Source: a virus (Duplodnaviria; Heunggongvirae; Uroviricota; Caudoviricetes). Taken from it: a stretch of 34,834 nt of DNA. The notes under the pieces are model-generated. The model was given only the letters and a program-made list of their open reading frames with translations. It did not search any database and was not told the origin of the DNA. Positions 2,187 to 34,834 of this stretch are shown in pieces. Where the stretch lies: the IMG/VR virus record IMGVR_UViG_2541047861_000007, positions 1 to 34,834 of that record. One strand, given 5' to 3'. Positions within the stretch are counted from its first letter, which is position 1; every line of letters starts with the position of its first letter. Both the position numbers and the translations under genes were made by a program.

Positions 2187-2364
2187 AGCGACCTCCCTTA
2201 ACGTGGTGCTGTCTCTATTCTAAGCTGTACAAGTTTTAATTCCAACTGACTGCCTACTTTGAACAAGAGATGAACTATTAATTTGGAGATCTCTGTGAGA
2301 CTGTTTTATACCGATGGATTAAGTAAGGCTATTTCTATATTAAGGTTAGTTTTGAATAAAAGAA

Positions 2365-2395
2365 TTTGTCAAAAAAGCATTTGGAGTAGACAATC
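2365..2395 (+). promoter_or_regulatory. Candidate sigma70 promoter for the TIR-domain gene
   Basis: ttgtca-(17)-gacaat upstream of a GGAG Shine-Dalgarno about 8 nt before the ATG at 2430; AT-rich context. Confidence 0.3.
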
Positions 2396-2429
2396 CTCTT
2401 TTCACATTGCTTAAGCAGGAGCTTAATGA

Positions 2430-3344
2430 ATGAAAACCGATTTGTTTATTTCATATGCTTGGACTTCAGATTCCCATAGAGAATGGGTTCGGTTGCTTGC
2501 AAGCCATCTCGACCTTATTGGTTATACGGTTAAAATCGATGAAGCTGTTAGATATGGTTCAAGCTTATCTGGTTTCATGCGAGAGGTTATCGAAACCGAT
2601 CATGTGTTGTTGATTGTCGATGATAATTATGTCGAACGCGCTAATAACAATCCGAATTCTGGAGTTGGTATTGAAAACAAATGGATAAGTGACGCTTTTA
2701 TGGAAAAGCCCTCGACATGGTTGTCAGTTATCTTTGTTCGAAATCCTGAGCGAAAACTACCTAAGTGGCTTGAGGGGCATAATCCTAAAGGGTTTGATTT
2801 TAATTCTAATTCTGATAGAAATGAATTTCCCGGCTCTATGCAGATCGATGCTATTTGGCGTTGGATTGAAGGGCTGCCGGCAGATAAAAAGTATTCAATC
2901 CCATTACCGGTTTATCGTCAACGTATTGCACGGCTTGAACATATTGATATTCTCCGAGCCCCTTCGCGTTATGCAAATCCAGCACTCAAGGGATGTGAGA
3001 TTTTTCGTTTCAGGGATTATTCCCACTATACGGTTGGTAACAGTGAGTACCAATTTAAAATAGTATTTAGTGCATGCTCTCATGATAGTGTTTACATCTA
3101 TATAGATTGTGAACTTAAAGCTATAGGATTGATCACATCTGTAGAATTCAATCCACAAACTGTCGAGTCTTTTTTAACTCCAGGTCGTTCTGTTAATGCG
3201 ACTGTCGGGCAAAAGGTAGTCCTACTAAACTCCTATGGGGTTCTGTGCATTGTAACAATTGATAATGTGCAACATGAGATTAATACCGCAGAGTATGTTC
3301 ATCCACATGTGGAGTTCTCATACGAAATACTTGAAAAAAACTAG
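2430..3344 (+). CDS. TIR-domain protein with an uncharacterised C-terminal domain (candidate defence/abortive-infection cargo)
   Basis: 304-aa ORF. The N-terminal 130 aa (DLFISYAWTSDSHREWVRLLASHLDLIGYTVKIDEAV..GSSLSGFMREVIETDHVLLIVDDNYVERANN) follow the classic TIR pattern (FISY, W..L, G..V..D, I.LLS..Y..S). The C-terminal 170 aa have no motif I recognise. Strongly AT-rich, opposite strand to flanking D and ogr. Confidence 0.65.
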   Translation: MKTDLFISYAWTSDSHREWVRLLASHLDLIGYTVKIDEAVRYGSSLSGFMREVIETDHVLLIVDDNYVERANNNPNSGVGIENKWISDAFMEKPSTWLSVIFVRNPERKLPKWLEGHNPKGFDFNSNSDRNEFPGSMQIDAIWRWIEGLPADKKYSIPLPVYRQRIARLEHIDILRAPSRYANPALKGCEIFRFRDYSHYTVGNSEYQFKIVFSACSHDSVYIYIDCELKAIGLITSVEFNPQTVESFLTPGRSVNATVGQKVVLLNSYGVLCIVTIDNVQHEINTAEYVHPHVEFSYEILEKN

Positions 3345-3490
3345 TGCCACATTATAAAAACTTCAGCGATTCTCATACTCCATTTTACTGATAACGTCCG
3401 CTCTTGGTGCAGAGCGGACTACTACTAGATAAGGTATAGTTTTGTCTGTAATCGTGTTTTTTTTAGGGGTGAGCAATACATCTAAGTTGC

Positions 3491-4591
3491 TCACTCTGTT
3501 TCTGCTATCCATTCCGGGATTTTTGCCTCAAGCTCAAGCTGTGTGGTAAAGCCGCTGTTATCAATGGTGTGCTCGGCTTTTGCAATAATCCAGTCCTGAT
3601 TATCAATCTCGCTTTTAAATCCTGTTACCGTGCCATGCATTTCGGGGTAGAGTTCTGCACGTCCACGTGCCAGCGTGATGGAGAATGATGCGGCTCCGCG
3701 TTGTAGCTGCTGCCACTTTGCCGCCGCTGCACGTCTTGCTGCCTGCTCGTTCTGATAAGTCTTGCGTAACACAAACACGTTGCCTTCCGCACCTTCCATA
3801 TAGTCACCTTCACGGCTGCTGCTTTTCTCCTTTTTCGGTTTGCGGCGTTTCACGCTGACTTTTTTCTTTTTCCCGTAATTAAGATCAAGCCAGTAAGCGC
3901 GTCCCCCCGTATACGCTTCGCGGTCAGCAATGCGGAACTGATGGCGATCGCCACTGCTGCGCGTGATGGCGAACGAGGGCAACGGCTGGCCCTGTGCGTT
4001 CACGCCACCGCCTGGCATGATGAATAACAGATTACCGCTTTTTACCGTAGTGATTGCGCCCAACATTTCCGCCATGCGCGTAAGGAAGGACATGTCGCTT
4101 TCTTCGGTCTGGTCGGCGTGGTCGATTTCGATATCCATCAGCATTTCGCTGATTTGCGGTTTCAGACCGTACCGATGAGCGATGGCGGATACCACGCGCT
4201 CAACGGTCACATCATGCCAGGATACTTCACGTTTAACGTTAAATTCATCCCGAAAATCTGCGCTTCTGGCTGAAACAGTCAGCCTGTCCGGCGGTCCTTC
4301 GTGTGCGATTTCATCAACAATGTAAGACCCTTTTTCTGTCAGCGGTTCGCCTTTCCAGCCAATGAGAACCGTCAGGCGCGCGCCCCGTGGCGGTAGCTGC
4401 AACTGACCATCCGCATCATCCAGCGTGATGGTGAGCTGGTCTGCCTCAAATCCCCGGTTGTCGGTCAGCGACAGGCTCATCAGGCGCTCTGCCACGCCGG
4501 ACAGCGTTTTACCCTCCGCGAGAATATCAAAATCCGGCATTTTCACGGGGTCTGTGCTCTGACTGAGCAATTGCATGGTGGTGTCGGTCAT
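3491..4591 (-). CDS. D: Tail protein D (late control gene D family, baseplate hub)
   Basis: Translation has the length and character of phage gpD-family proteins. Start placed at the ATG preceded by AGGGAGG (MTDTTMQLL) rather than the upstream end of the open frame. Confidence 0.8.
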   Translation of the reverse strand: MTDTTMQLLSQSTDPVKMPDFDILAEGKTLSGVAERLMSLSLTDNRGFEADQLTITLDDADGQLQLPPRGARLTVLIGWKGEPLTEKGSYIVDEIAHEGPPDRLTVSARSADFRDEFNVKREVSWHDVTVERVVSAIAHRYGLKPQISEMLMDIEIDHADQTEESDMSFLTRMAEMLGAITTVKSGNLLFIMPGGGVNAQGQPLPSFAITRSSGDRHQFRIADREAYTGGRAYWLDLNYGKKKKVSVKRRKPKKEKSSSREGDYMEGAEGNVFVLRKTYQNEQAARRAAAAKWQQLQRGAASFSITLARGRAELYPEMHGTVTGFKSEIDNQDWIIAKAEHTIDNSGFTTQLELEAKIPEWIAETE

Positions 4592-4748
4592 CTGCTCCCT
4601 CCCTGTGCGGCATGGTCGCATGTGTGTGCGGGCGGGGTTACTGCTTTTTGTTGTCGCCGGGCGGCAAGAACGGCGCAGGGGTGAGATTACGCGCGTGGTG
4701 GGTGATGATTGTTGCCGAATCATTTAACGGATACAAGGGGCTGAAGCT

Positions 4749-10340: not shown

Positions 10341-10372
10341 CAAAACCGCTAATGGTCAGATTAGCGGTTTTT
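10341..10372. terminator. Bidirectional rho-independent terminator between convergent U and invertase genes
   Basis: aaaaccgctaatggtcagattagcggtttttt: 9-bp stem with an A-tract before and T-tract after. Confidence 0.65.
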
Positions 10373-10962
10373 TATTTTCCCTGAGTCTGCCCGGTTGTTT
10401 CTTCAGCCTGTATATCGCCTACAGGGTGATAACGATAAATCGTCGATATACCGATGTCGTAAATGATCGCCAGTTGTTTCCTGTCATGGCCGTTTTTAAT
10501 CAGCCTTTCTATTTGCTCATGTTGTTCTTTTGTCAACTTCGGGCGACGTCCGCCAATGCGTCCCTGTGCTCGTGCTGCTGCCAGCCCGGCCAGTGTACGC
10601 TCTACAATTAATTCACGTTCCATTTCTGCTAAAGCTCCCATGACGTGAAAAAAGAAACGCCCCATGGGTGTTGATGTGTCAATGCTGTCCGTCAGGCTAC
10701 GGAAATTAACACCTTTTTCCCGCAATTCCTCAATAAGCGTGATCAGGTGTTTCTTACTCCTGCCCAGCCTGTCCAGCTTCCAGACAACCAGCGTATCTCC
10801 TTCTGATAGCGTTCTGAGCAGTTTTTTCAATCCCGGTCTGGCTGATTTCGTTCCGCTGATTTTATCTTCAAAAATCAGTTCACATCCTGCGCACTCCAGC
10901 GCGTTACGCTGCAATTCCGTGTTCTGGTCATTTGTTGATACGCGAACATAACCAATAAGCAT
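10372..10962 (-). CDS. Serine-recombinase DNA invertase (Gin/Pin/Cin/Hin family)
   Basis: MLIGYVRVSTNDQNTELQRNAL..DTLVVWKLDRLGRS..FRSLTDSIDTSTPMGRFFFHVMGALAEMERELI..GRIGGRRPKLT is near-identical in motif content to Mu Gin, including the catalytic Ser in YVRVST and a C-terminal HTH. Confidence 0.93.
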   Translation of the reverse strand: MLIGYVRVSTNDQNTELQRNALECAGCELIFEDKISGTKSARPGLKKLLRTLSEGDTLVVWKLDRLGRSKKHLITLIEELREKGVNFRSLTDSIDTSTPMGRFFFHVMGALAEMERELIVERTLAGLAAARAQGRIGGRRPKLTKEQHEQIERLIKNGHDRKQLAIIYDIGISTIYRYHPVGDIQAEETTGQTQGK

Positions 10963-10989
10963 GAGCATCCCCCTGAATAAAAACCGGAG

Positions 10990-11403
10990 ATGATGCCCGT
11001 TACCCGTTATCTCTGCATTTTCACAAACGTTGGTTTGGGAGAAGCAGCGAAACGGGGGGTGGGAACAGGGGAAAATCAGATACCGGACATGGCTTCTTTT
11101 GCCAGTGGTGATGGATGGATGAAATTACCCAACGGGAAAATCCTGCAATATGGTCGTGGTGCGATTACGCCGACATTATCGACGCAAACAATGAGAATTA
11201 CATTCAGCATCCCTTTTCCTAAAGAAGTGGACTGCGCCATGCTTACCCATTCTGGTGATGGTGGTGCGCCTTTAGGCGCTGGACGGGGATTCGTGATGAC
11301 TGCAGAAGGTCCAACACTAACCGGTTTTAATTCCGCTTACAGAACTGCATCAACCAGCTCCACAGTATCGATGAATTACAGTTGGTGGGCTGTTGGTGAG
11401 TAA
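10990..11403 (+). CDS. Alternative (currently silent) tail-fibre C-terminal segment inside the invertible region
   Basis: Open frame on the opposite strand from H, containing VGLGE encoded by the same 15-bp sequence as LGLGE in H; no independent promoter expected. Confidence 0.65.
11019..11044. repeat. Gix/cix-like recombination site, left end of invertible segment (approximate)
   Basis: ttttcacaaacgTTGGTTTGGGAGAAg; the reverse complement reads TTCTCCCAAACC-AA-CGTTTGTGAA, resembling the 12+2+12 architecture of Gin-family sites and shared in inverted orientation with the H site. Confidence 0.5.
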
Positions 11404-11414
11404 TTTTATTCAGG

Positions 11415-11867
11415 GTGATTTATATGAACGAATATGTTTATAGTGCCAGACATAATGCTTTTTTCCCTGTGGATATGATTGATAAATATAAATCAGAGGG
11501 ATGGGATTTATCAGATGTGAAAGAAGTTAATCAAAATATTGTCGGTGAATTTATGGCTGAGCCGCCACAAGGAAAAATCCGTATTGCCGGAGATGATGGG
11601 CTGCCTGCGTGGGCAGATATTCCTCAACCCACGCATGAAGAGCTTATTGAAATTACTGAATCAGAAAGACAGCTACTAATTAACCAGGCCAACGAATACA
11701 TGAACAGTAAGCAATGGCCCGGTAAAGCCGCTATTGGTCGTCTGAAAGGTGAGGAACTGGCGCAATATAATTTGTGGCTGGATTATCTGGATGCACTGGA
11801 GCTGGTTGATACCTCCAGTGCGCCAGATATTGAATGGCCTACGCCTCCGGCAATTCAGGCCAGATGA
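11415..11867 (+). CDS. Tail fibre assembly protein (alternative, partner of the silent fibre tip)
   Basis: 150-aa ORF directly after the alternative fibre segment; 3' end overlaps convergently with the other assembly gene, the pattern of the Mu U/U' pair. Confidence 0.75.
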   Translation: MIYMNEYVYSARHNAFFPVDMIDKYKSEGWDLSDVKEVNQNIVGEFMAEPPQGKIRIAGDDGLPAWADIPQPTHEELIEITESERQLLINQANEYMNSKQWPGKAAIGRLKGEELAQYNLWLDYLDALELVDTSSAPDIEWPTPPAIQAR

Positions 11868-22447: not shown

Positions 22448-24199
22448 ATGATTCAGGACGCTTTTGTGCGCCAGCGTGCGCGGCAACTTTACTGGCAGGG
22501 TTATCCGCCCGCAGAAATATCACGTCTGATGGGAATAAACCCGAACACGATTTATGCGTGGAAAAAACGTGACCAGTGGGATGAAACGCCACCCGTGCAG
22601 CGTGTCACGCAGTCCATCGATGCGCGCCTCATCCAGCTTACTGAAAAACAGAATAAAACAGGCGGTGACTTTAAGGAAATAGACCTGCTGACCCGGCAGC
22701 TTAAAAAGCTGCATGATGGCCAGCCGGATGCGACGGCCGCAGGAAAGAAAGGCCGGGCGAAAAAACTCAAAAATCATTTCACGCCGGAACAGATTGCCGC
22801 ACTGCGGGAAAAAATCATCAGCAGGCTGGAGTGGCATCAGCGGGGCTGGTTTGACTCCCTGACCCTTTGCAGGGAAGCCGGGATACGTAACAGGATGATC
22901 CTGAAATCCCGACAGATTGGGGCGACCTGGTATTTTGCACAGGAAGCACTGCTGATGGCGCTGCGTGACGATGTGGCGCAACCTTACCAGCGTAACCAGA
23001 TTTTTTTGTCTGCGTCGCGTCGTCAGGCGTTCCAGTTTAAAAGCATTATTCAGAAGGCCGCGGCTGAAGTTGATGTGGAGCTGAAAGGGGGCGATAAAAT
23101 CATCCTCTCCAACGGCGCAGAGCTGCATTTTCTCGGCACTTCTGCTGCGTCGGCACAGTCCTATACGGGCAATTTTTATTTTGATGAATTTTTCTGGGTC
23201 AGTCGCTTTGCTGAACTGCGCAAGGTGGCTGGCGCTATGGCAACCCTCAGCGGACTGCGGCGCACCTACTTCTCCACGCCATCCACCGAAACGCACGAGG
23301 CATACGCCTACTGGAACGGCGACCGCTGGAATGAGAAAAAGGCCTCGCATAAACGCCAGCGTTTTTCTGTGGACTGGAAAACGCTGCATAACGGGCTTAT
23401 CTGCCCTGACCGGACGTGGCGGCAAATTGTCACGCTGGAAGATGTGGTTAATCACGGCTGGAAACACACTGATATCGACGAAATTCGTGATGAAAACACC
23501 GAAGACGAGTTCCTCAATCTCTATATGTGTGAGTTTGTCCGCGAAGGGGAATCGGCATTTAACCTGAATATCCTGATTGGCTGCGGTGTTGACGGATACG
23601 ACGACTGGAAAGACTGGAAACCTTTTGCTCCCCGCCCGATGGGGAATCGTCCGGTATGGATTGGGTATGACGCAAACGGCAGTAGTGGCAACGGCGACAG
23701 CGGCGCTGTGTCCGTGGTGGTTCCTCCGGCTGTTCCTGGTGGCCGTTTTCGAACGGTGGAGACGCGACGCGTTCAGGGGCTGGAGTTTGAAGAACAGGCC
23801 AGAGTCATTGAAGAGTTCACGTATCGCTACAACGTGGAACACATCGGCATTGATGTGACGGGCGGGAACGGGGAGGCTGTTTATCAGATAGTGAAACGGT
23901 TTTTCCCTGCTGCTATTCCGTACACCTTCACGCTGTCATCAAAACGGTCGCTGGTACTGAAAATGCTGCAAATAATGCGTGCCGGGCGGTGGGAATACGA
24001 TCGCGCCGAACGCGAGCTGGTCGCGGCCTTTAACGCCGTGCGTAAGGTGAAAACACCGGGCGGCTTTATCACTTACGAAACGGACCGCGCGAGGGGGATC
24101 AGCCACGGCGACCTTGCGTGGGCAACCATGCTTGCTGTCATTAACGAACCGATTGGCGGCGAAGGAGAAAACGAGCGTTTCACGGTTATGGAGTTCTGA
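22448..24199 (+). CDS. P: Terminase large (ATPase) subunit P
   Basis: 583 aa, divergent from O as in P2, with a terminase-type ATPase N-terminal half and nuclease C-terminal half. Confidence 0.93.
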   Translation: MIQDAFVRQRARQLYWQGYPPAEISRLMGINPNTIYAWKKRDQWDETPPVQRVTQSIDARLIQLTEKQNKTGGDFKEIDLLTRQLKKLHDGQPDATAAGKKGRAKKLKNHFTPEQIAALREKIISRLEWHQRGWFDSLTLCREAGIRNRMILKSRQIGATWYFAQEALLMALRDDVAQPYQRNQIFLSASRRQAFQFKSIIQKAAAEVDVELKGGDKIILSNGAELHFLGTSAASAQSYTGNFYFDEFFWVSRFAELRKVAGAMATLSGLRRTYFSTPSTETHEAYAYWNGDRWNEKKASHKRQRFSVDWKTLHNGLICPDRTWRQIVTLEDVVNHGWKHTDIDEIRDENTEDEFLNLYMCEFVREGESAFNLNILIGCGVDGYDDWKDWKPFAPRPMGNRPVWIGYDANGSSGNGDSGAVSVVVPPAVPGGRFRTVETRRVQGLEFEEQARVIEEFTYRYNVEHIGIDVTGGNGEAVYQIVKRFFPAAIPYTFTLSSKRSLVLKMLQIMRAGRWEYDRAERELVAAFNAVRKVKTPGGFITYETDRARGISHGDLAWATMLAVINEPIGGEGENERFTVMEF

Positions 24200-25245
24200 T
24201 GAGCAGAAAAAACAAAAAAGTGCGCATGAGTTCACGCATTGATCTCGCTGATGCGCTCAGGAAAGAATCATCGCTCAGTGCATTCACATTTGATGGTCCT
24301 TATCGCCTGACCGGGCATGACCTGCTGGACAATATGTACTGTGCTGATAACGGGCGGTGGTATGAAACCCCGGTGGACTGGTACGGTCTGGCAAGAGCAG
24401 CCCGGCAAACGTCCTGGCATCAGTCTGCGCTTTACTTTAAGCGCAATGTATTACTCGGTTGCTACATCCCGCACCCGCTGCTTTCCCGGCAGGATTTCTC
24501 GGCGCTGGCGCTGGACTGGTTTGTGTTCGGTAATGCATTCCTTGAGCTTCGAAGCAATATGCTCGGCGAACCGCTTAAATTACGGCACGCCCTGGCGAAA
24601 TACATGCGACGCGGAAGCGATCTTGAATCATGGTGGTATGTGCAGGATGGTAAGGACGCGTTTCAGTTTCGCCCTGGCAAAGTATGCCACCTGATGAATC
24701 CGGATATTAACCAGGAAATCTACGGCATGCCGGAATATCTTGGCGCATTACTCTCGGCCAGCCTTTCTCATTCGGCGGACATGTTCAGAAAACTGTACTA
24801 CGACAACGGATCCCACGCCGGGTGCATCATCTACATCGGTGCAGCGCAGGTAAACCGCGAAAGCATGGACTCCCTGAAAGAAACGTTACAGGGTGCGCGT
24901 GGTGGTGGTGCATTTAAAAACGTGCTCATTCATGCGCCCAACGGGGGCAAAGAGGGGGTGCAAATTTTGCCGTTCCAGCAGATCACCGCAAAGGATGAGT
25001 TCATGAATGTTAAGGCGGCATCCCGTGATGATGTACTGGCTGCGCACCGCGTTCCGCCGCAACTGATGGGGGCGATGCCGGGCGAAAAAAGTGCGTTTGG
25101 TGATGTGGAGAAGGCCGCGCGGGTTTATGCAATTAACGAGCTGATGCCCGTTATGGAGGCTATGAAGCACATCAATGACTGGCTTGGCGAAGAGGTGATC
25201 CGCTTTAACCCTTACGCACTGTTAGACACCCAGCCCACATCCTGA
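24199..25245 (+). CDS. Q: Portal protein Q
   Basis: 348 aa directly after P with an ATGA overlap; size and position of P2 gpQ. Confidence 0.93.
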   Translation: MSRKNKKVRMSSRIDLADALRKESSLSAFTFDGPYRLTGHDLLDNMYCADNGRWYETPVDWYGLARAARQTSWHQSALYFKRNVLLGCYIPHPLLSRQDFSALALDWFVFGNAFLELRSNMLGEPLKLRHALAKYMRRGSDLESWWYVQDGKDAFQFRPGKVCHLMNPDINQEIYGMPEYLGALLSASLSHSADMFRKLYYDNGSHAGCIIYIGAAQVNRESMDSLKETLQGARGGGAFKNVLIHAPNGGKEGVQILPFQQITAKDEFMNVKAASRDDVLAAHRVPPQLMGAMPGEKSAFGDVEKAARVYAINELMPVMEAMKHINDWLGEEVIRFNPYALLDTQPTS

Positions 25246-25389: not shown

Positions 25390-25425
25390 TTGACTGCATG
25401 TTCTCGCCGCCTCAGTGCGATTTTG
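25390..25425. other. Candidate cos (cohesive-end) region
   Basis: Reverse complement reads GAGGCGGCGAGAACATGCA, which resembles the P2 cohesive end GGCGAGGCGGGGAAAGCAC as I recall it, and lies about 170 bp beyond the Q stop, where P2 places cos. Confidence 0.35.
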
Positions 25426-25573
25426 ACGGCCTTATCTGTCACCCCATCAAATCAAAAGCCCTCACGTCTTTTTCACGCTCAGCGTGAGAAATACAGCCAT
25501 TCTGTTGTGTCGCTGCGACATCGTTCAGGGGATGCTATTTACCCCCTGAAACGCGGGCTGTTCCCCCGTCACC

Positions 25574-25599
25574 TGCGCGCAGAAAAAGCGCGTTTTTTT
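25574..25599 (+). terminator. Rho-independent terminator candidate
   Basis: cgcgc-agaaaaa-gcgcg followed by T7. Confidence 0.45.
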
Positions 25600-25670
25600 G
25601 TGCACGCACGGATCCTTGACGGATCCAGCCGCCACGCGGGCCGGAAGGGCAAAAAGTCGTTCAAAAAAAT

Positions 25671-25700
25671 TGTGCAAATTTGTGCACTATTGTGCAGTGT
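25671..25700. repeat. Three direct TGTGCA hexamers phased at exactly 10 bp
   Basis: tgtgcaaatt tgtgcactat tgtgcagtgt, preceded by an A7 tract. Confidence 0.6.
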
Positions 25701-26098
25701 GTATCGTGCTGTTTTCTACGTAAAGAACGGATGGTAAATTTGCTCGTAGCAGAGAAGATTTTAATGATCGCAAGATATGAAAAAAGATTCATAACCCTAT
25801 TTGATGTGCATCCTGTTTCAGGACTTGATATGTGACTGTATTACTGGGGCCACATCGTTGGGAGTTTTAAAGGACTAAGGTAATTATTATGGCATTCAAT
25901 TAAAAACAATACTATATACTATTTGATAACTATTTTGCAGCATGAAGAACCTTTAATTAATTATATGATTTTTTGTGATTGCAAATTTTTTAGATAAATA
26001 GCAAGATATCATAAATCATTATTATTCGTTTGCTTTTTTAATGAGAGTGTTTGTTTATAACGCTAATTTAATTTCAATAAGGAAAAAATGGAGTTACT

Positions 26099-27463
26099 AT
26101 GAATATAACTACTAATCGGAATGGTTTTGAGAATGGTTTTGATATTACATCTGACATATTTAATCGTAAGACATTATATGATCAAATGATACGGCTTATT
26201 ATTAATGCTCCTGACTCAAATTTGGTTTTTGCGTTAGATGATATATGGGGTAGCGGTAAAACATCATTTGTTAAGATGTTAAAATCAGAATTAGAATTAA
26301 CTAATAGTGAATATATAGATGTTGTTTATTTCGATGCATTTGAAAATGATTATCAATCAGATCCATTTATTTCAATATCATCTGAGCTATATAATTTACT
26401 AAAACACAGAGGAGTAGAGGCCGAAGATGTAGCTGATCGCATTATTAAAACTGGTAAGAAAATAGGTGCAAAAATATTAATCGGAGGTGCAAAGGTAGCT
26501 ATTACAACCCTGACAGCAGGTGTTGTGAATGGTTCTGCTCTTGATGCGGCAGGAAAAACAGTTAGCGATTCCATTAATAGTGAGTTAGAGTCTTTTGTTG
26601 AAGAGAAAATAAAATCCATGGAGCAGGAAAAAAACTCAATTGCTGACTTTAAAAAAGCTTTAGAAGAAATATATACAAATACAAAGAGAAAAACCTTGAT
26701 TATTATTGATGAACTTGATCGAGCCCGCCCAGATTATTCTCTAGAGCTATTGGAAAAAATTAAGCATCTTTTTTCTGTGAAAGGTATGGTTTTCTTATTG
26801 GTAATGAATCGAGAGCAATTTGAAAAGGGAATTGCATATAAATACGGTGATATCAATACTGGTCTGTACTTGAATAAATTTATTCATTATTGGTTTTCTT
26901 TGCCCAAAATAAATATGTATGACTCTATGGTGTTACAAGCATCTAACAAAACAACGATTACAACGTATATTAAAAAAACTCTACAACAGAATCACTCTCT
27001 AGGTATTAATACAGATGGTGCTTTTGTAAGAGTCTTATCATGCTTGATTGAAACCAATAATTGCTCGCTGCGAGAAGTTGAACGATGTATTTCAACTATG
27101 CTTGTAGTGGATAATCATACGTGTATAGCGAATAATGATGATAATTATTATATGATTGCATTAGCATTGGTTTGTTTCTTGAAAGTAACTTCTCCAGATA
27201 TGTTAAATCGACTACTTAAGAAGGAAATGTCTTCTGAAGAGATATTAGAATTACTTAATATAAAATCTGATTATTTTTCATCAAAGATGGAAATTAAATT
27301 GCTTAAAGAACTACTGGATTATTATTACATCGATAAAGAAACATTAAAACTATTACGTAATGAAAAGGGAAGTTATGTTCAGCGTATAGAAGGTGATTTT
27401 GCGTTTGAATATAACCATATCTTTAATATTTCCACATCAATAGCTAATATGACTATAAAATAA
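26099..27463 (+). CDS. KAP-family P-loop NTPase (candidate phage-exclusion/abortive-infection protein)
   Basis: 454 aa; Walker A in ALDDIWGSGKTSFVKM, Walker B in LIIIDELDRARPDYSLELLEKIKHLF, the KAP NTPase signature (the family that includes F-plasmid PifA). Very AT-rich with rare-codon usage; GGAG Shine-Dalgarno 7 nt upstream. Confidence 0.8.
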   Translation: MNITTNRNGFENGFDITSDIFNRKTLYDQMIRLIINAPDSNLVFALDDIWGSGKTSFVKMLKSELELTNSEYIDVVYFDAFENDYQSDPFISISSELYNLLKHRGVEAEDVADRIIKTGKKIGAKILIGGAKVAITTLTAGVVNGSALDAAGKTVSDSINSELESFVEEKIKSMEQEKNSIADFKKALEEIYTNTKRKTLIIIDELDRARPDYSLELLEKIKHLFSVKGMVFLLVMNREQFEKGIAYKYGDINTGLYLNKFIHYWFSLPKINMYDSMVLQASNKTTITTYIKKTLQQNHSLGINTDGAFVRVLSCLIETNNCSLREVERCISTMLVVDNHTCIANNDDNYYMIALALVCFLKVTSPDMLNRLLKKEMSSEEILELLNIKSDYFSSKMEIKLLKELLDYYYIDKETLKLLRNEKGSYVQRIEGDFAFEYNHIFNISTSIANMTIK

Positions 27464-27683: not shown

Positions 27684-30464
27684 TTATTTGTTCCCACTCT
27701 TTACTCCTCTTCGCAGTAGGTCAGCTTTGTGGCAGGCGCGTTCGGTTGTTTCACAGATTCTTTGTGTGTGCTCTGTGTCGTGAATGGCGCGCAGCATGTC
27801 AGAAAGCACAGTAACGGGGGTTTTCATGGTGTTCTGGTCCTGCTGAAGTGTGGATGCCAGGCGTGCGGCGGCTTCGGGGTCTGATGCCCCCAGCTGTTCC
27901 AGATAGCTGGCGACCGGGTTATGGCGGATCTCCGTGCTGCTTACGCCGTGATTACGGCTCAGGCGCTGCCAGAGCTGCGTGATTCGGCTGTCCGGGCGGG
28001 TATCCGGTTTGCGTACAATTTCAAATCCCTGCGGTGCAATGATGCTGCCGTCAACGTACAGGCTGCCGCCCCGTAACAGGTGCTGCATCTGCTGTTCACC
28101 GATATGCAGGCCGAGAGATTCGGCAGATTCCCGCCATTCTTTAGCGAGTAATTCGTGGTTATCAGGCAAAGGCCGCTGCTGTTTGCGGCTCTGTGTCCAG
28201 CTCTGCATTTCATCACTGCTGTTTTTTGCCTGTTTGTCACGCAGCGAACGCATCAGCGCCCGGCGTTCGTACCGTTTCAGTGAGCGCATCCATTCATCCA
28301 CATCAACGCCGTCAGGAAGCTGCGGCCACAGTGCTGGCCGTTCTTCCGGCTGTTCTGTCCCGTTGTTGTCTGTTTCCTGTACACGGGGACAGTTATTGCC
28401 ACGAGTCCAAGGGGCGGCAGGGCCGCCCTGAAGGTCAAAACCATTTTCGCGGGTGCTGTCTTCCGCTTCCGGTTTACGTCTTACCAGCTTCCAGTTATCT
28501 GGGTGCGTGCACACACGGGAGGATTCCCCGATGAGTGGTGACCAGATCCCGTAAATCTGTACGCTCTGTTCGCCGTAATCGTTCAGCTCATCTGCGAGGT
28601 CGTAGGCGGTGCGAATCAGGTAGTCCTTGCGTGGAACAAGTACGCCACCCTGTTTTTCAATGTAGGAGGCAAAACACCCGGCATCAGCGGCAGCGAGTAC
28701 CGCATCCATTGCGTCATCCTTCAGCCGTTGCGGGCCTTCCGGGTTGCGTGCCATCTGGCTGGCAAGGCGGCGCAGTTCACGCCACACCTGACGGGAGGGG
28801 ATGCCAAAGAACTGGAACTGGCGGACCCGGTGAAGGCGCGCCCAGCCGATGGCGCGCTCCACGCTCTCGGCCATTGATTTTCCGGTTTCGTGGTCAACGC
28901 GTGGTTTGCCCGTTTTCGGGTCGATGCCATCCACGGCGCGGCTGTCCAGGTTTTTTCCGATGTAGGTCGCGATATAGCTGGTTGGTGTGCCTTTTAAGCC
29001 GTCGACATACTCCACCTTAAAGCGCGGAGTAATATCATTGCCCAGCTCGTGGCGGTCTTCCTGAATGGCAATATCGCGGGTGATGGCCACGATGCTGTCG
29101 ATTTCTTCCGGATGAGCAAAGACCATCATATGCCAGTGCACGGTGCCGTCATGGTGAGGCTCCACCGTGCGGATGCCATACCAGCGCAGACCGTCGCGGT
29201 TCAGTTTTTTGCGGACCGCCGCAAAAAACGTGTTAACCAGGTAATCGCTGGAGTCGCGCATGGTGGCCCCGTTCCATTTGGGATTCGGATGACCGTTCTC
29301 TGTTGTGGCGTGGTATTTTGATGGGCAGGTGACAGTCAGAAACACCGCTTTGTCGCCACGGGCCTCGGCCAGAAGTTCCAGCCCCTTCATGGTGGCCATC
29401 ATTTCTGCCTTACGGTGAACCGGGTTACTTACTCCCGCGTAATACACTGTCTCGAGATCAATCGTGAACCCGTCTTCGTTTTCCAGCATGAAACTTTTCA
29501 GGAAATCGCGTGTTTTCTCGCGCTGTGCGCGAAACTCGCTTAACGCGTCCTGGCTCAGATAGGGCGATGTTTTTCTGGAAACCAGACAGGCGGCGCGGAG
29601 TTGTTCTTCTCTCCACTCGCAACGTAACAGCCACAGTTTGCGTTTCCACCATTCAGCACAGGTCAGGCGAAGGATTGCGCCTGGCAGCAGCTCCGTGTCC
29701 GGTTCGTTCCTCCGATCTCTATCTGTTGTCAGTGCGTCATAATGTGGAGGCATGGCGTGCAGGTGTAACGCCATGCGGGCCAGCATCTGATACGCCTTCA
29801 GCGTTACATCCATGGTCAGCTCACCATCGGTCGCGCCAAAGCCATCGCAGAGTTTTTCGAAGGTGCTGCTGAACATCGCCGCCGTCATGGTGGCCAGCGT
29901 CTGTATCTGGTGTTTGTTGAGCTGCGGCAGGTAAAGCAAATCGTCCAGGCGTTCGCGTCCGGCAAGGGAGCGATACCCCTGTGTCAGCCAGCGGCTGTCG
30001 GTGCGCTCCAGACGTTCGAATATTTTGCGCAGGTTTCCGCGCGCGTAGCGTTCGGCCTGCCAGCTCTTTTTGCCTTTCTGACGATCGGCTTCCTGCTTCT
30101 TGCGCAGGAACGAGAGGTGGCGGCTCAGGGGTTCTCGCAGATAAACGGGAAGCACCTTCAGTGTGGCAAAGGCACGGGCCACCGGGTCTTGTTCTGTTGC
30201 CCGACGCTTACTGATGATGCTTTGTGCCAGCTTTTCACGCTGTCCGGCTTCCTCAAGGGATGCCATGAGTTTTTTACCCATGGCGGATTGTGCGAAAAAG
30301 GCTTCCTCTTTCGCTTCCTGTTCTTCCTGGGCCTTTTTGTCTGCCTCAAGGTAGTAACGGATGGCGCGTTGCAGGTCGGTTTCAGTTTCCTGCCTGCGCT
30401 CCGTAAATCTGGCCGGATCAATGGCTGGCCGTGGTTCATTCCAGCTCCATGCAAACTCACTCAT
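27684..30464 (-). CDS. A: Replication initiation protein A (rolling-circle endonuclease, P2 gpA family)
   Basis: Large protein with a HUH-type motif region (DGTVHWHMMVF) and a tyrosine-containing segment (TSYIATYIGKN); start placed at MSEFAWSW where the ATG overlaps the upstream gene stop (ATGA). Confidence 0.92.
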   Translation of the reverse strand: MSEFAWSWNEPRPAIDPARFTERRQETETDLQRAIRYYLEADKKAQEEQEAKEEAFFAQSAMGKKLMASLEEAGQREKLAQSIISKRRATEQDPVARAFATLKVLPVYLREPLSRHLSFLRKKQEADRQKGKKSWQAERYARGNLRKIFERLERTDSRWLTQGYRSLAGRERLDDLLYLPQLNKHQIQTLATMTAAMFSSTFEKLCDGFGATDGELTMDVTLKAYQMLARMALHLHAMPPHYDALTTDRDRRNEPDTELLPGAILRLTCAEWWKRKLWLLRCEWREEQLRAACLVSRKTSPYLSQDALSEFRAQREKTRDFLKSFMLENEDGFTIDLETVYYAGVSNPVHRKAEMMATMKGLELLAEARGDKAVFLTVTCPSKYHATTENGHPNPKWNGATMRDSSDYLVNTFFAAVRKKLNRDGLRWYGIRTVEPHHDGTVHWHMMVFAHPEEIDSIVAITRDIAIQEDRHELGNDITPRFKVEYVDGLKGTPTSYIATYIGKNLDSRAVDGIDPKTGKPRVDHETGKSMAESVERAIGWARLHRVRQFQFFGIPSRQVWRELRRLASQMARNPEGPQRLKDDAMDAVLAAADAGCFASYIEKQGGVLVPRKDYLIRTAYDLADELNDYGEQSVQIYGIWSPLIGESSRVCTHPDNWKLVRRKPEAEDSTRENGFDLQGGPAAPWTRGNNCPRVQETDNNGTEQPEERPALWPQLPDGVDVDEWMRSLKRYERRALMRSLRDKQAKNSSDEMQSWTQSRKQQRPLPDNHELLAKEWRESAESLGLHIGEQQMQHLLRGGSLYVDGSIIAPQGFEIVRKPDTRPDSRITQLWQRLSRNHGVSSTEIRHNPVASYLEQLGASDPEAAARLASTLQQDQNTMKTPVTVLSDMLRAIHDTEHTQRICETTERACHKADLLRRGVKSGNK

Positions 30465-30850
30465 GGCTGGTATCCCGTCACGCGCTGCCACTCCTGCGAG
30501 AAGAGGGCGGAAAGGCGGTTAAACTCAGCGGTGTATTCACTCAGCGAGGCACACCCGCCAGCAGTGCGATGCGCCAGCATTGCCGCAAATACGGAGGCCG
30601 GGGAGTCGTAATACGCCAGCAGTGATTCGCCGTGCGGTGTCAGGCAGTGCAACGCCAGTCCGTGTGGTGTGAAGTCCACGCGGTAGCAGTCGTCTACTGT
30701 GAAATAAAGGGTATCCACATTCTCCGGTTTTGTGGTGCGTGCTCTGTTGTCACGACCACGAATGTAGAGATCAAATAATCCCCGAAGAATGGGAGCCAGA
30801 CGGGTGTCCTGTGTGCGCACCCATCTTGTGAAGTCATGAGCGTCAATCAT
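30461..30850 (-). CDS. Hypothetical early protein at the position of P2 gene B, translationally coupled to A
   Basis: 129-aa ORF in the early operon; function not recognisable from sequence. Confidence 0.5.
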   Translation of the reverse strand: MIDAHDFTRWVRTQDTRLAPILRGLFDLYIRGRDNRARTTKPENVDTLYFTVDDCYRVDFTPHGLALHCLTPHGESLLAYYDSPASVFAAMLAHRTAGGCASLSEYTAEFNRLSALFSQEWQRVTGYQP

Positions 30851-33772: not shown

Positions 33773-33841
33773 CTCTACACATTGAGCGAATTACATATCG
33801 CAAGGAGTGTTTAGTTAATTTATCCGTTGGAGGGGCTAATC

Positions 33842-34834
33842 ATGTCGATTAAGCAACTCAAAGACGGACGTTATCAGGTCGATGTCAGACCGCAGGGGGC
33901 GGAAGGAAAGCGGATTCGAAAAATCTTTGCCCTGAAATCAAAGGCTCAGGAGTTTGAGAAGTATGTGTTACAGAACTTTCATGACAAGCCATGGCAGGCT
34001 AAGCCAGCTGATCAGCGGCGATTATCAGAGCTGCTTGATGCGTGGTGGATGCTTGATGGGCGTAATCAGGCTTACGGGGATAGCTACAGGGTTAGGCTAG
34101 GGAAGGTTGTTCGTGAAATGGGAGATCCTCGCGCCAGTCAGATGACGCGAAAATTTATGCTTGAATATCGGTCAGAGAAATTACAGGCCGGATTAATGCC
34201 GTCCAGTATTAATCGTGACTTATGCGTACTGTCTACCATGTTCACGGTGCTGATTGAAGCTGAGGTCTTTCACAACGCGAACCCTGTACGCGGTATACGA
34301 AAACTGAAAGTTCAGAACACAGAGATGGCCTTTCTTTCTGATGATGAGATTGAACGGCTTCTTGAGCGACTGGAGGGTGATGCGCGTCGTGTTGCCATTC
34401 TGTGTCTTTCTACTGGTGCCCGATGGAGTGAAGCATCGGAACTACGTGGAGAGCATATCGTTGGCAACCGGGTGACGTTCTTTAACACCAAAAACGGAAA
34501 ATCCCGTTCGGTTCCTGTGGCGGATTCGGTCGTGCCTCTGATTAAAACCCGTCGAACGGGGTTATTGTATCAGGTTGATTATCTGAAGTTCCGGGAGATT
34601 CTTCAGGAGGTGAAACCGGATTTGCCGAAGGGGCAGGCTACGCATGTCATGCGTCATACGTTTGCCACACACTTTATGATGAATGGCGGAAATATTGTTA
34701 CGTTGCAACGAATCCTGGGGCACGCAACGATTCAGCAAACAATGACGTACGCTCATTTTTCGCCGGACTTTTTACAGGACGCGATCAACTTTAATCCGCT
34801 GGCTGAAAGTGTCCATAAACTGTCCATCGATTAG
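33842..34834 (+). CDS. int: Tyrosine integrase (P2 Int type)
   Basis: Start at MSIKQLKDGRYQVDVRP (P2 Int begins MAIKKLDDGRYEVDIRP); catalytic motifs ARWSEASELR, HVMRHTFATH, LGHATIQQTMTYAHF; downstream of C and reading toward the window edge. Confidence 0.93.
   Translation: MSIKQLKDGRYQVDVRPQGAEGKRIRKIFALKSKAQEFEKYVLQNFHDKPWQAKPADQRRLSELLDAWWMLDGRNQAYGDSYRVRLGKVVREMGDPRASQMTRKFMLEYRSEKLQAGLMPSSINRDLCVLSTMFTVLIEAEVFHNANPVRGIRKLKVQNTEMAFLSDDEIERLLERLEGDARRVAILCLSTGARWSEASELRGEHIVGNRVTFFNTKNGKSRSVPVADSVVPLIKTRRTGLLYQVDYLKFREILQEVKPDLPKGQATHVMRHTFATHFMMNGGNIVTLQRILGHATIQQTMTYAHFSPDFLQDAINFNPLAESVHKLSID

Follow-up and report, generated by a model that had tools for sequence, protein, structure and literature searches.

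A bSEFIR-family gene carried between ogr and D of a P88-like Escherichia coli prophage and predicted to encode a single-protein anti-phage NADase

We analysed a 34,834-nt stretch of DNA (positions 1 to 34,834 of IMG/VR virus record IMGVR_UViG_2541047861_000007), which is called the window below. It began with serS (1-1293), followed by a P2-like Escherichia coli prophage integrated beside serS, and a foreign gene was located between the prophage genes ogr and D. The gene probably belongs to the bSEFIR family and would encode a single-protein anti-phage NAD+ (nicotinamide adenine dinucleotide) glycohydrolase (NADase), carried as cargo of a P88-like (Peduoviridae) prophage. From the sequence evidence, we put the probability of this reading at about 0.75. 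The present analysis established the gene and its insertion, its fold and family match, its invariant residues, purifying selection on it, the absence of a partner gene and the mobile, defence-linked contexts. Protection and NADase activity of the window protein would follow from homology over the N-terminal domain only. An earlier note, made from the DNA letters, had proposed a single-protein, NAD+-consuming sensor-effector that protects the lysogen as prophage cargo. This proposal agreed with what the literature reports for bSEFIR, but the note had missed the family itself.

The SEFIR-type N-terminal domain and family membership

The earlier note had placed one gene on the strand opposite to its neighbours. 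This was confirmed, with the cargo gene on the + strand, ogr and D both on the - strand, and the reading frame intact. The gene and its parts were as follows.

2430-3344 (stop included), + strand: bSEFIR-family gene with an ATG start, an intact open reading frame (ORF) of 304 amino acids
2430-2834, + strand: SEFIR-type STIR domain, residues 1-135, predicted NAD+ glycohydrolase effector
2538-2540, + strand: codon of Asp37, invariant in 88 of 88 domains
2673-2675, + strand: codon of Glu82 in the GVGxE motif, candidate catalytic glutamate, invariant in 88 of 88 domains
2835-2981, + strand: conserved, mostly helical linker, residues 136-184, containing QIDxIWRWIEGLPA
2982-3341, + strand: C-terminal all-beta domain (beta-sandwich), residues 185-304 (120 amino acids), predicted sensor or assembly domain

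The N-terminus had been described as a TIR domain, and RefSeq names the identical locus 'toll/interleukin-1 receptor domain-containing protein' (WP_096217408.1). TIR profiles detected the domain, and Pfam searches with the single sequence gave TIR_2 at 35.7 bits (cut-off 28) and SEFIR at 23.3 bits (cut-off 23). PADLOC matched the protein to bSEFIR (PDLC03957, E 1.9e-44, 151 bits), with no other strong match. The only significant sequence match in the PDB was the Bacillus cereus SEFIR domain, at 6e-8 with the single sequence and 6.9e-13 with the family profile (residues 5-125). RPS4, ThsB and AbTIR gave 0.07 or worse against the same profile. In NCBIfam there was no match to the protein, and PHROGs gave just two unannotated families, both covering the N-terminal domain. 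By the operational definition of Millman et al., which takes a SEFIR-type N-terminus with a stronger match to SEFIR than to TIR, the protein fell within the family. On these sequence comparisons, the domain belongs to the STIR superfamily and is of the SEFIR type, and the label 'TIR' is right at the superfamily level only.

Conservation across the family was examined by aligning 88 N-terminal SEFIR domains from clusters that shared at most 50% identity. Three residues, Y9, D37 and E82, were invariant in all 88, including BcSEFIR, in the pattern FxSY ... D ... GVGxE. A conserved catalytic glutamate had been suggested as a check, and Glu82 was the candidate that emerged. It was located at the start of the helix following strand C in the predicted structure, and in this model its position would equal that of the catalytic glutamate of TIR NADases. 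The catalytic motif of TIR NADases such as SARM1 and AbTir is WxxxE. The window protein did not carry W-x3-E but G78-V-G-x-E82, and the residue at position -4 from E82 was glycine in 87 of the 88 sequences. The domain therefore differed from the classical TIR domain that the earlier note had in mind. The same holds for comparison with the classical TIR systems, namely Thoeris ThsB, AbTir, TIR-STING and TIR-SAVED, since the window gene also had no partner effector and no cyclic-nucleotide sensor domain.

The family was defined experimentally in Bacillus. A single SEFIR gene of Bacillus sp. NIO-1130 (IMG gene 2616229772) protected B. subtilis from phi29, the D40A mutation abolished protection, and homologues were catalogued in 460 genomes (Millman et al. 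2022, bioRxiv 10.1101/2022.05.11.491447). Later papers described SEFIR as a single-protein system whose N-terminal domain depletes NAD+ to ADP-ribose and nicotinamide, and reported that the phage NARP1 pathway overcomes it. Asp37 of the window protein probably corresponds to D40, as judged from its position and not from alignment to the Bacillus protein. IMG/VR contigs of Pectobacterium carotovorum BC T5 and Providencia rettgeri CCBH11880 carried homologues of 304 amino acids with 67-70% identity, and both genomes are listed as bSEFIR carriers in Table S6 of Millman et al. The 304-amino-acid subfamily has thus very probably been counted as bSEFIR before.

We compared the window protein with known systems. 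It shared with the bSEFIR system of NIO-1130, as modelled in DefenseFinder and PADLOC, an N-terminal SEFIR-type domain, a single gene without a partner, an invariant Asp that probably corresponds to D40, an invariant Glu, and the family's enrichment near defence genes and mobile elements. However, the Bacillus gene is chromosomal whereas this one lies in an E. coli prophage, and the protein has 304 amino acids against 412 positions in the family model, which does not detect its C-terminal domain. The crystallised SEFIR of B. cereus F65185 (PDB 5Y8E/5Y8F; Yang et al. 2018) is the domain alone, with 144-154 amino acids, while the window protein adds the conserved helical linker and the 120-residue beta-sandwich. 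DSR1, DSR2 and TIR-type Avs/NLR-like proteins have the same predicted logic of an N-terminal NADase, C-terminal recognition and abortive infection by NAD+ loss, and such systems are likewise found in P2 and P4 hotspots. Compared with these systems, the effector is SEFIR instead of SIR2, the length is 304 instead of about 1000 amino acids, and there is no NTPase or repeat sensor.

A query with the BcSEFIR domain returned 167 proteins. The 120 that were listed all had 89-219 amino acids, mostly with precomputed SEFIR and TIR_2 Pfam matches, and came mainly from Firmicutes and metagenomes. The NIO-1130 protein was absent among the matches listed. This reflects either a bias of the word-index search towards short targets or large numbers of short, mostly SEFIR-only proteins.

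The insert and the distribution of its gene

The gene was located in an insert with the following features.

About 2225-3484 (1.26 kb), no strand: foreign cargo cassette in the ogr-D spacer, delimited by BLASTN and by direct comparison with the empty site of P88 and the occupied sites of 500465-2 and 520873
2366-2394, + strand: sigma-70-like promoter candidate TTGTCA-17-GACAAT (scan for the consensus, with 9 of 12 positions matching), 36 nt before the ATG
2416-2420, + strand: Shine-Dalgarno sequence AGGAG, read from the sequence, 9 nt 5' of the ATG
3396-3419, + strand: GC-rich hairpin with a 9-bp stem, downstream of the gene, with no T-run after the stem
3466-3497, + strand: second hairpin of 12 pairs, from a terminator-like scan and a fold, extending across the right border of the cassette and the stop codon of D

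An AT-rich insert of about 1.3 kb between D and ogr had been noted before, and alignment with P88 confirmed it. In the empty site of P88, ogr and D were only about 35 bp apart. The hexamer TCTAAG was found at each border of the insert (2219-2224 and 3479-3484) and as a single copy in P88. The G+C content was 38.2% in the insert and 54.5% in the prophage body; in 300-bp windows it was 35-43% across the ogr-D interval and 50-57% in both flanks. The insert encoded one gene only and no partner gene. A ribosome-binding site and a promoter had also been proposed, and of these AGGAG was clear, while promoter-like sites were no commoner than chance. The promoter is assigned by its position, because the count of sites was no higher than expected, and an own promoter for the gene is plausible from the sequence. 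An Ogr-dependent late promoter was ruled out, as no TGT-N12-ACA dyad was found upstream of the gene. The fold of 3340-3500 gave -43.4 kcal/mol (z = -2.9). The cassette of phage 500465-2 carried the hairpin GTCCGCTTCTGACACGGAGCGGAC in the position matching 3396-3419, with a near-identical stem.

The distribution of the gene was also investigated. Of 5426 complete E. coli genomes, 5 had an intact copy with at least 99.4% identity, and in each of them the copy belonged to this prophage at serS. The homologues numbered about 380; almost all had 303-304 amino acids and could be aligned over their full length, with identities of 60-80%. Their hosts were Enterobacterales, Pseudomonas, Vibrio, Shewanella, Alcanivorax, Novosphingobium and Mucilaginibacter, and this spread points to horizontal transfer. 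The pairwise ratio of nonsynonymous to synonymous substitution rates (dN/dS) against four homologues was 0.17-0.23, where dS was unsaturated. On these ratios the gene is under purifying selection, and the family-invariant residues were all kept in the window protein. These results bear on the possibility that the prophage carries the gene as an inert passenger or decaying remnant, with no present function in it. Its rarity among E. coli genomes, its foreign composition and the weak promoter evidence would fit such a passenger. However, the full-length frame was conserved in all five genomes, with the low dN/dS values and retained invariant residues given above, and we regard this explanation as highly improbable.

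The five carrier strains were all derived from animals (avian pathogenic E. coli from chicken, and isolates from pig and wild boar). In animals, SEFIR is the signalling domain of the interleukin-17 (IL-17) receptor (bioRxiv 10.1101/2022.05.11.491447). Both points would suit a host-directed virulence factor, in which a SEFIR/TIR mimic of the TcpC/BtpA kind disrupts IL-17 or Toll-like receptor signalling. However, the family occurs at 60-70% identity in soil, plant and marine bacteria (Mucilaginibacter, Novosphingobium, Alcanivorax, Shewanella, Pectobacterium). Virulence proteins of the TcpC/BtpA type carry a C-terminal TIR domain and are restricted to animal-associated pathogens. The window protein had neither feature, as its domain is N-terminal and its family is common in environmental bacteria. 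No N-terminal signal peptide was noticed in the sequence, although no formal prediction was made. The catalytic-type glutamate was invariant, and the neighbours of homologues were defence or mobile-element genes and not virulence loci. A virulence role is thus very unlikely.

Homologues were found in the following contexts.

Locus L007: beside IS3 and a type I restriction-modification operon
Pectobacterium chromosome: alone
Pectobacterium, second context: by Zot and secretin genes
Locus L013: at the end of a lambdoid Proteus prophage, by an AbiJ-like gene and a Gabija-like OLD-TOPRIM/UvrD pair
Locus L014: in a Mucilaginibacter element with recombinase and TraG (conjugation) genes
Locus L023, 5295-9502: a 67% identical copy between terS and terL of an unrelated Providencia rettgeri prophage (IMG/VR)

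From its position, the Providencia copy shows that a phage has captured the gene as a moron a second time, independently. No neighbour was conserved across the contexts that were compared. A ThsA-type effector, a cyclase or a STING/SAVED domain was found neither in the insert nor in these contexts, in agreement with the earlier note, which had seen no partner gene. This argues against a ThsB-like signal producer, which would make an NAD+-derived nucleotide messenger to activate an effector encoded elsewhere, with no NAD+ depletion of its own. A fixed partner is unlikely because the gene moves alone among unrelated mobile elements and phyla at 60-80% identity, and SEFIR is presented in the literature as a system of one protein that depletes NAD+. 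We consider such a signalling role quite unlikely. The contexts support a defence role.

The gene might instead serve the prophage, as an addiction or abortive module that stabilises it or by interfering with P2-like competitors or P4-like satellites. The prophage also has a Hok/Gef toxin gene next to ogr, and cargo of P2 and P4 is known to mediate conflict between mobile elements (Rousset et al.). However, no antitoxin-like partner was present. In addition, the function is not tied to P2 biology, because close homologues reside in a Pectobacterium chromosome, a lambdoid prophage, an element resembling an integrative and conjugative element and a terS-terL slot. This explanation was judged unlikely.

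The C-terminal domain and the proposed mode of action

The C-terminal half had been left unrecognised in the earlier note, and it matched nothing in Pfam, NCBIfam, PHROGs, PADLOC or PDB sequences. In the AlphaFold model, the linker formed helices at 137-147 and 159-176, with invariant Q138, W143, R144, W145 and E147. The C-terminal domain modelled alone gave a predicted local distance difference test (pLDDT) of 83 and a predicted template modelling score (pTM) of 0.77. The BFVD viral fold library gave no match to it at E <= 0.001. When the C-terminal 156 amino acids were used as the sole query, only 3 close fragments were returned. An exhaustive search of representatives showed that the architecture of SEFIR plus beta domain, at about 300 amino acids, persisted down to 25-30% identity. 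Two or three copies of the beta domain in tandem were also found in proteins that carry a signal peptide or a membrane anchor (P0202, P0242, P0248), one such tandem-copy protein being fused to a matrixin (M10) metalloprotease. The per-domain E values of these copies were 3e-10 to 8e-19 (representative search and a local hidden Markov model). Many other proteins with an N-terminal SEFIR domain, of 380-570 amino acids, bore different C-termini. Single-protein sensors usually combine a constant effector with a variable C-terminus, and on this analogy the C-terminal beta domain may act as the sensor or control assembly. The PADLOC match extended to residue 235 of 304, and this was considered as a sign of the beta domain in the bSEFIR model. 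It was rejected, as the domain alone gave no match.

Based on these features, we propose how the protein may work. Transcription in the lysogen would start at the gene's own promoter and would not depend on the phage late genes. The protein would become active only when a superinfecting phage is sensed, and the most likely sensor would be the C-terminal beta-sandwich, possibly together with the helical linker. Upon detection, the N-terminal SEFIR domains would self-associate, as the D40A result in Bacillus and the behaviour of TIR NADases suggest. The assembled domains would then use Glu82 as the catalytic residue to cleave NAD+ to ADP-ribose and nicotinamide; depletion of NAD+ is what was reported for the Bacillus bSEFIR. 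The loss of NAD+ would halt phage replication and probably the infected cell too, so that the lysogen population is protected.

Several observations weighed against the assignment as a bSEFIR defence NADase. The generic TIR_2 model outscored SEFIR in the single-sequence Pfam search, where SEFIR was barely over its cut-off. Homology to the verified system was limited to the N-terminal domain, and the C-terminal domain alone did not match the PADLOC bSEFIR model. The promoter candidate was a weak match to the consensus, and sigma-70-like sites were not enriched in the region, with 5 found and 3.6 expected in shuffled sequence. Mean pairwise identity was 61% in the C-terminal domain, little lower than the 73% in the effector, and there was no hint in the domain of the fast divergence that is common among phage sensors. 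Its other homes, the secreted proteins, are odd for a cytoplasmic sensor. Finally, a literature search found no experiment on the window protein. On the other side, the same slot in sister prophages held other defence-type cargo (PIN, DUF3800, DUF2971 and a weak HEPN-like protein), which favours the bSEFIR defence assignment.

The ogr-D slot, the surrounding prophage and significance

The slot between ogr and D was examined in other prophages. The ogr and D flanks were found in 1457 of 5426 complete E. coli genomes (about 27%). In an evenly spaced subset of these matches, 43 rows contained both flanks; 25 were empty as in P88 and 18 (about 40%) were occupied. The occupied slots were of at least 10 different lengths and annotations, so that the comparison of synteny proposed in the earlier note revealed a variable interval. 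The anchors of the slot and the cargo found in it were as follows.

1926-2186, - strand: ogr, left anchor (Pfam Ogr_Delta 1e-15; RefSeq annotation)
3491-4591, - strand: gene D (tail/baseplate hub), right anchor (Pfam Phage_GPD 3.5e-18 on ORF 3491-4723)
Other slot cargo (L016-L021, L001, L002): SEC-C-motif 'YecA family' protein, DUF2971 protein (PADLOC candidate PDC-S31), DUF3800 protein, 500-residue PIN_4 protein, alpha/beta hydrolase and ParA-like ATPase
Cargo in phage 500465-2 (L001): 340-residue protein with a weak, sub-threshold HEPN match
Compared border regions: window 2219-2260 and 3460-3500; L001 1785-1860 and 3030-3131; L002 556-640 and 1457-1558; L019

Besides bSEFIR, only the DUF2971 cargo (PDC-S31) had a strong PADLOC match. 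The occupied cassettes shared short border sequences, (C/A)TCCAAC(T/A)G about 55 nt past the start of ogr and GAGCTAATAYATCTAAG immediately ahead of the stop codon of D. The conserved slot borders were CATAGCGACCTCCC on the ogr side and a degenerate TCTAAGTTGCTCACTC on the D side, the latter not matching every occupied copy. Two cassettes shared a downstream hairpin with the near-identical stem GTCCGCT...AGCGGAC. These sequences are consistent with the exchange of cassettes by recombination.

Two cargo hotspots have been described in P2-like phages, gpA-gpQ (old/tin) by Rousset et al. 2022 and Z/fun by Vassallo et al. 2022. The bSEFIR gene was at neither position. Like the slot studied here, the old/tin and Z/fun loci hold AT-rich Peduoviridae cargo with its own promoter and with content that varies among near-identical phages; in contrast to these loci, the slot is bounded by ogr and D and is at the end of the prophage. 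The ogr-D slot was not mentioned in either paper, and a limited literature search found no other description. We conclude that the ogr-D interval of P88-like prophages serves as a slot for variable cargo, which is modestly new. We also propose, tentatively and at somewhat less than even odds, that the ogr-D interval of P88-like (Xuanwuvirus/Gemsvirus) prophages is a third Peduoviridae defence hotspot with mostly unvalidated single-gene cargoes, and that the C-terminal beta-sandwich is a direct phage sensor, for a conserved phage component or a surface-type ligand.

In megablast, the flanks were 95-97% identical to phage P88 and its relatives (Xuanwuvirus, Gemsvirus; Peduoviridae). Sheath, tube and tape-measure genes followed gene D on the + strand. 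Two further genes were recorded as features.

1594-1734, - strand: Hok/Gef-type toxin ORF of 46 amino acids, flanked by ogr and by the prophage end nearest serS (RefSeq: Hok/Gef family protein)
26099-27463, + strand: KAP-family P-loop NTPase of 454 amino acids (PADLOC candidate PDC-S20 at 1.8e-75; weaker PifA and QatA matches)

The KAP NTPase occupied the classical P2 gpQ-gpA hotspot, between Q (24199-25245) and an A-like gene (27684-30491), both assigned by position and size. Together with the bSEFIR gene, this means that the prophage has at least two defence-type cargo genes. An ORF of 115 residues at 25390-25737 accompanied the NTPase gene. Records of P88-like phages name the counterpart of the Hok/Gef ORF 'MokW-like host killing'. 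Rfam at gathering thresholds gave no match in the window, and no Sok-like antisense RNA was found by this ORF.

The true start of gene D is probably at 4591, as suggested by the 366-residue length of P88 D. In several related prophages, RefSeq (Prokaryotic Genome Annotation Pipeline, PGAP) splits gene D into a 264-residue 'VgrG/Pvc8 family' protein and a small pseudogene fragment (window 3491-4723; L004 7305-8149). The frame in the window was open for 410 codons and matched the 366-residue P88 D. This looks like an annotation inconsistency, judged from the sequence, and not a broken gene. A serine recombinase of 198 amino acids (Resolvase and HTH_7; 10372-10968, - strand) had the tail gene U region on one side and the tail-fibre genes on the other. 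It was followed by small + strand ORFs at 10990-11403 and 11415-11867, and the region is probably a Gin/Cin-type invertible host-range switch. The window ended within the prophage integrase gene (33827-34834, + strand; Int_N and Phage_integrase), which places the right attachment site beyond it.

The bSEFIR family was described in 2022 and is detected by standard tools, and the earlier note had overrated the novelty of the gene. Neither a bSEFIR in E. coli nor the ogr-D slot alters the present understanding of bacterial immunity. For annotation, the gene should be named a bSEFIR-family defence gene instead of a generic 'TIR domain protein', and a standard PADLOC scan flags it. The remaining interest lies in the C-terminal domain, the trigger and the ogr-D cargo slot. 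This is a small (304 amino acids), prophage-borne bSEFIR that is native to E. coli, a tractable host in which it would keep its native promoter, and it suits questions about the trigger and about how SEFIR is switched. With its conserved cassette ends, the ogr-D slot can be mined for new single-gene defences, as gpA-gpQ and Z/fun were.

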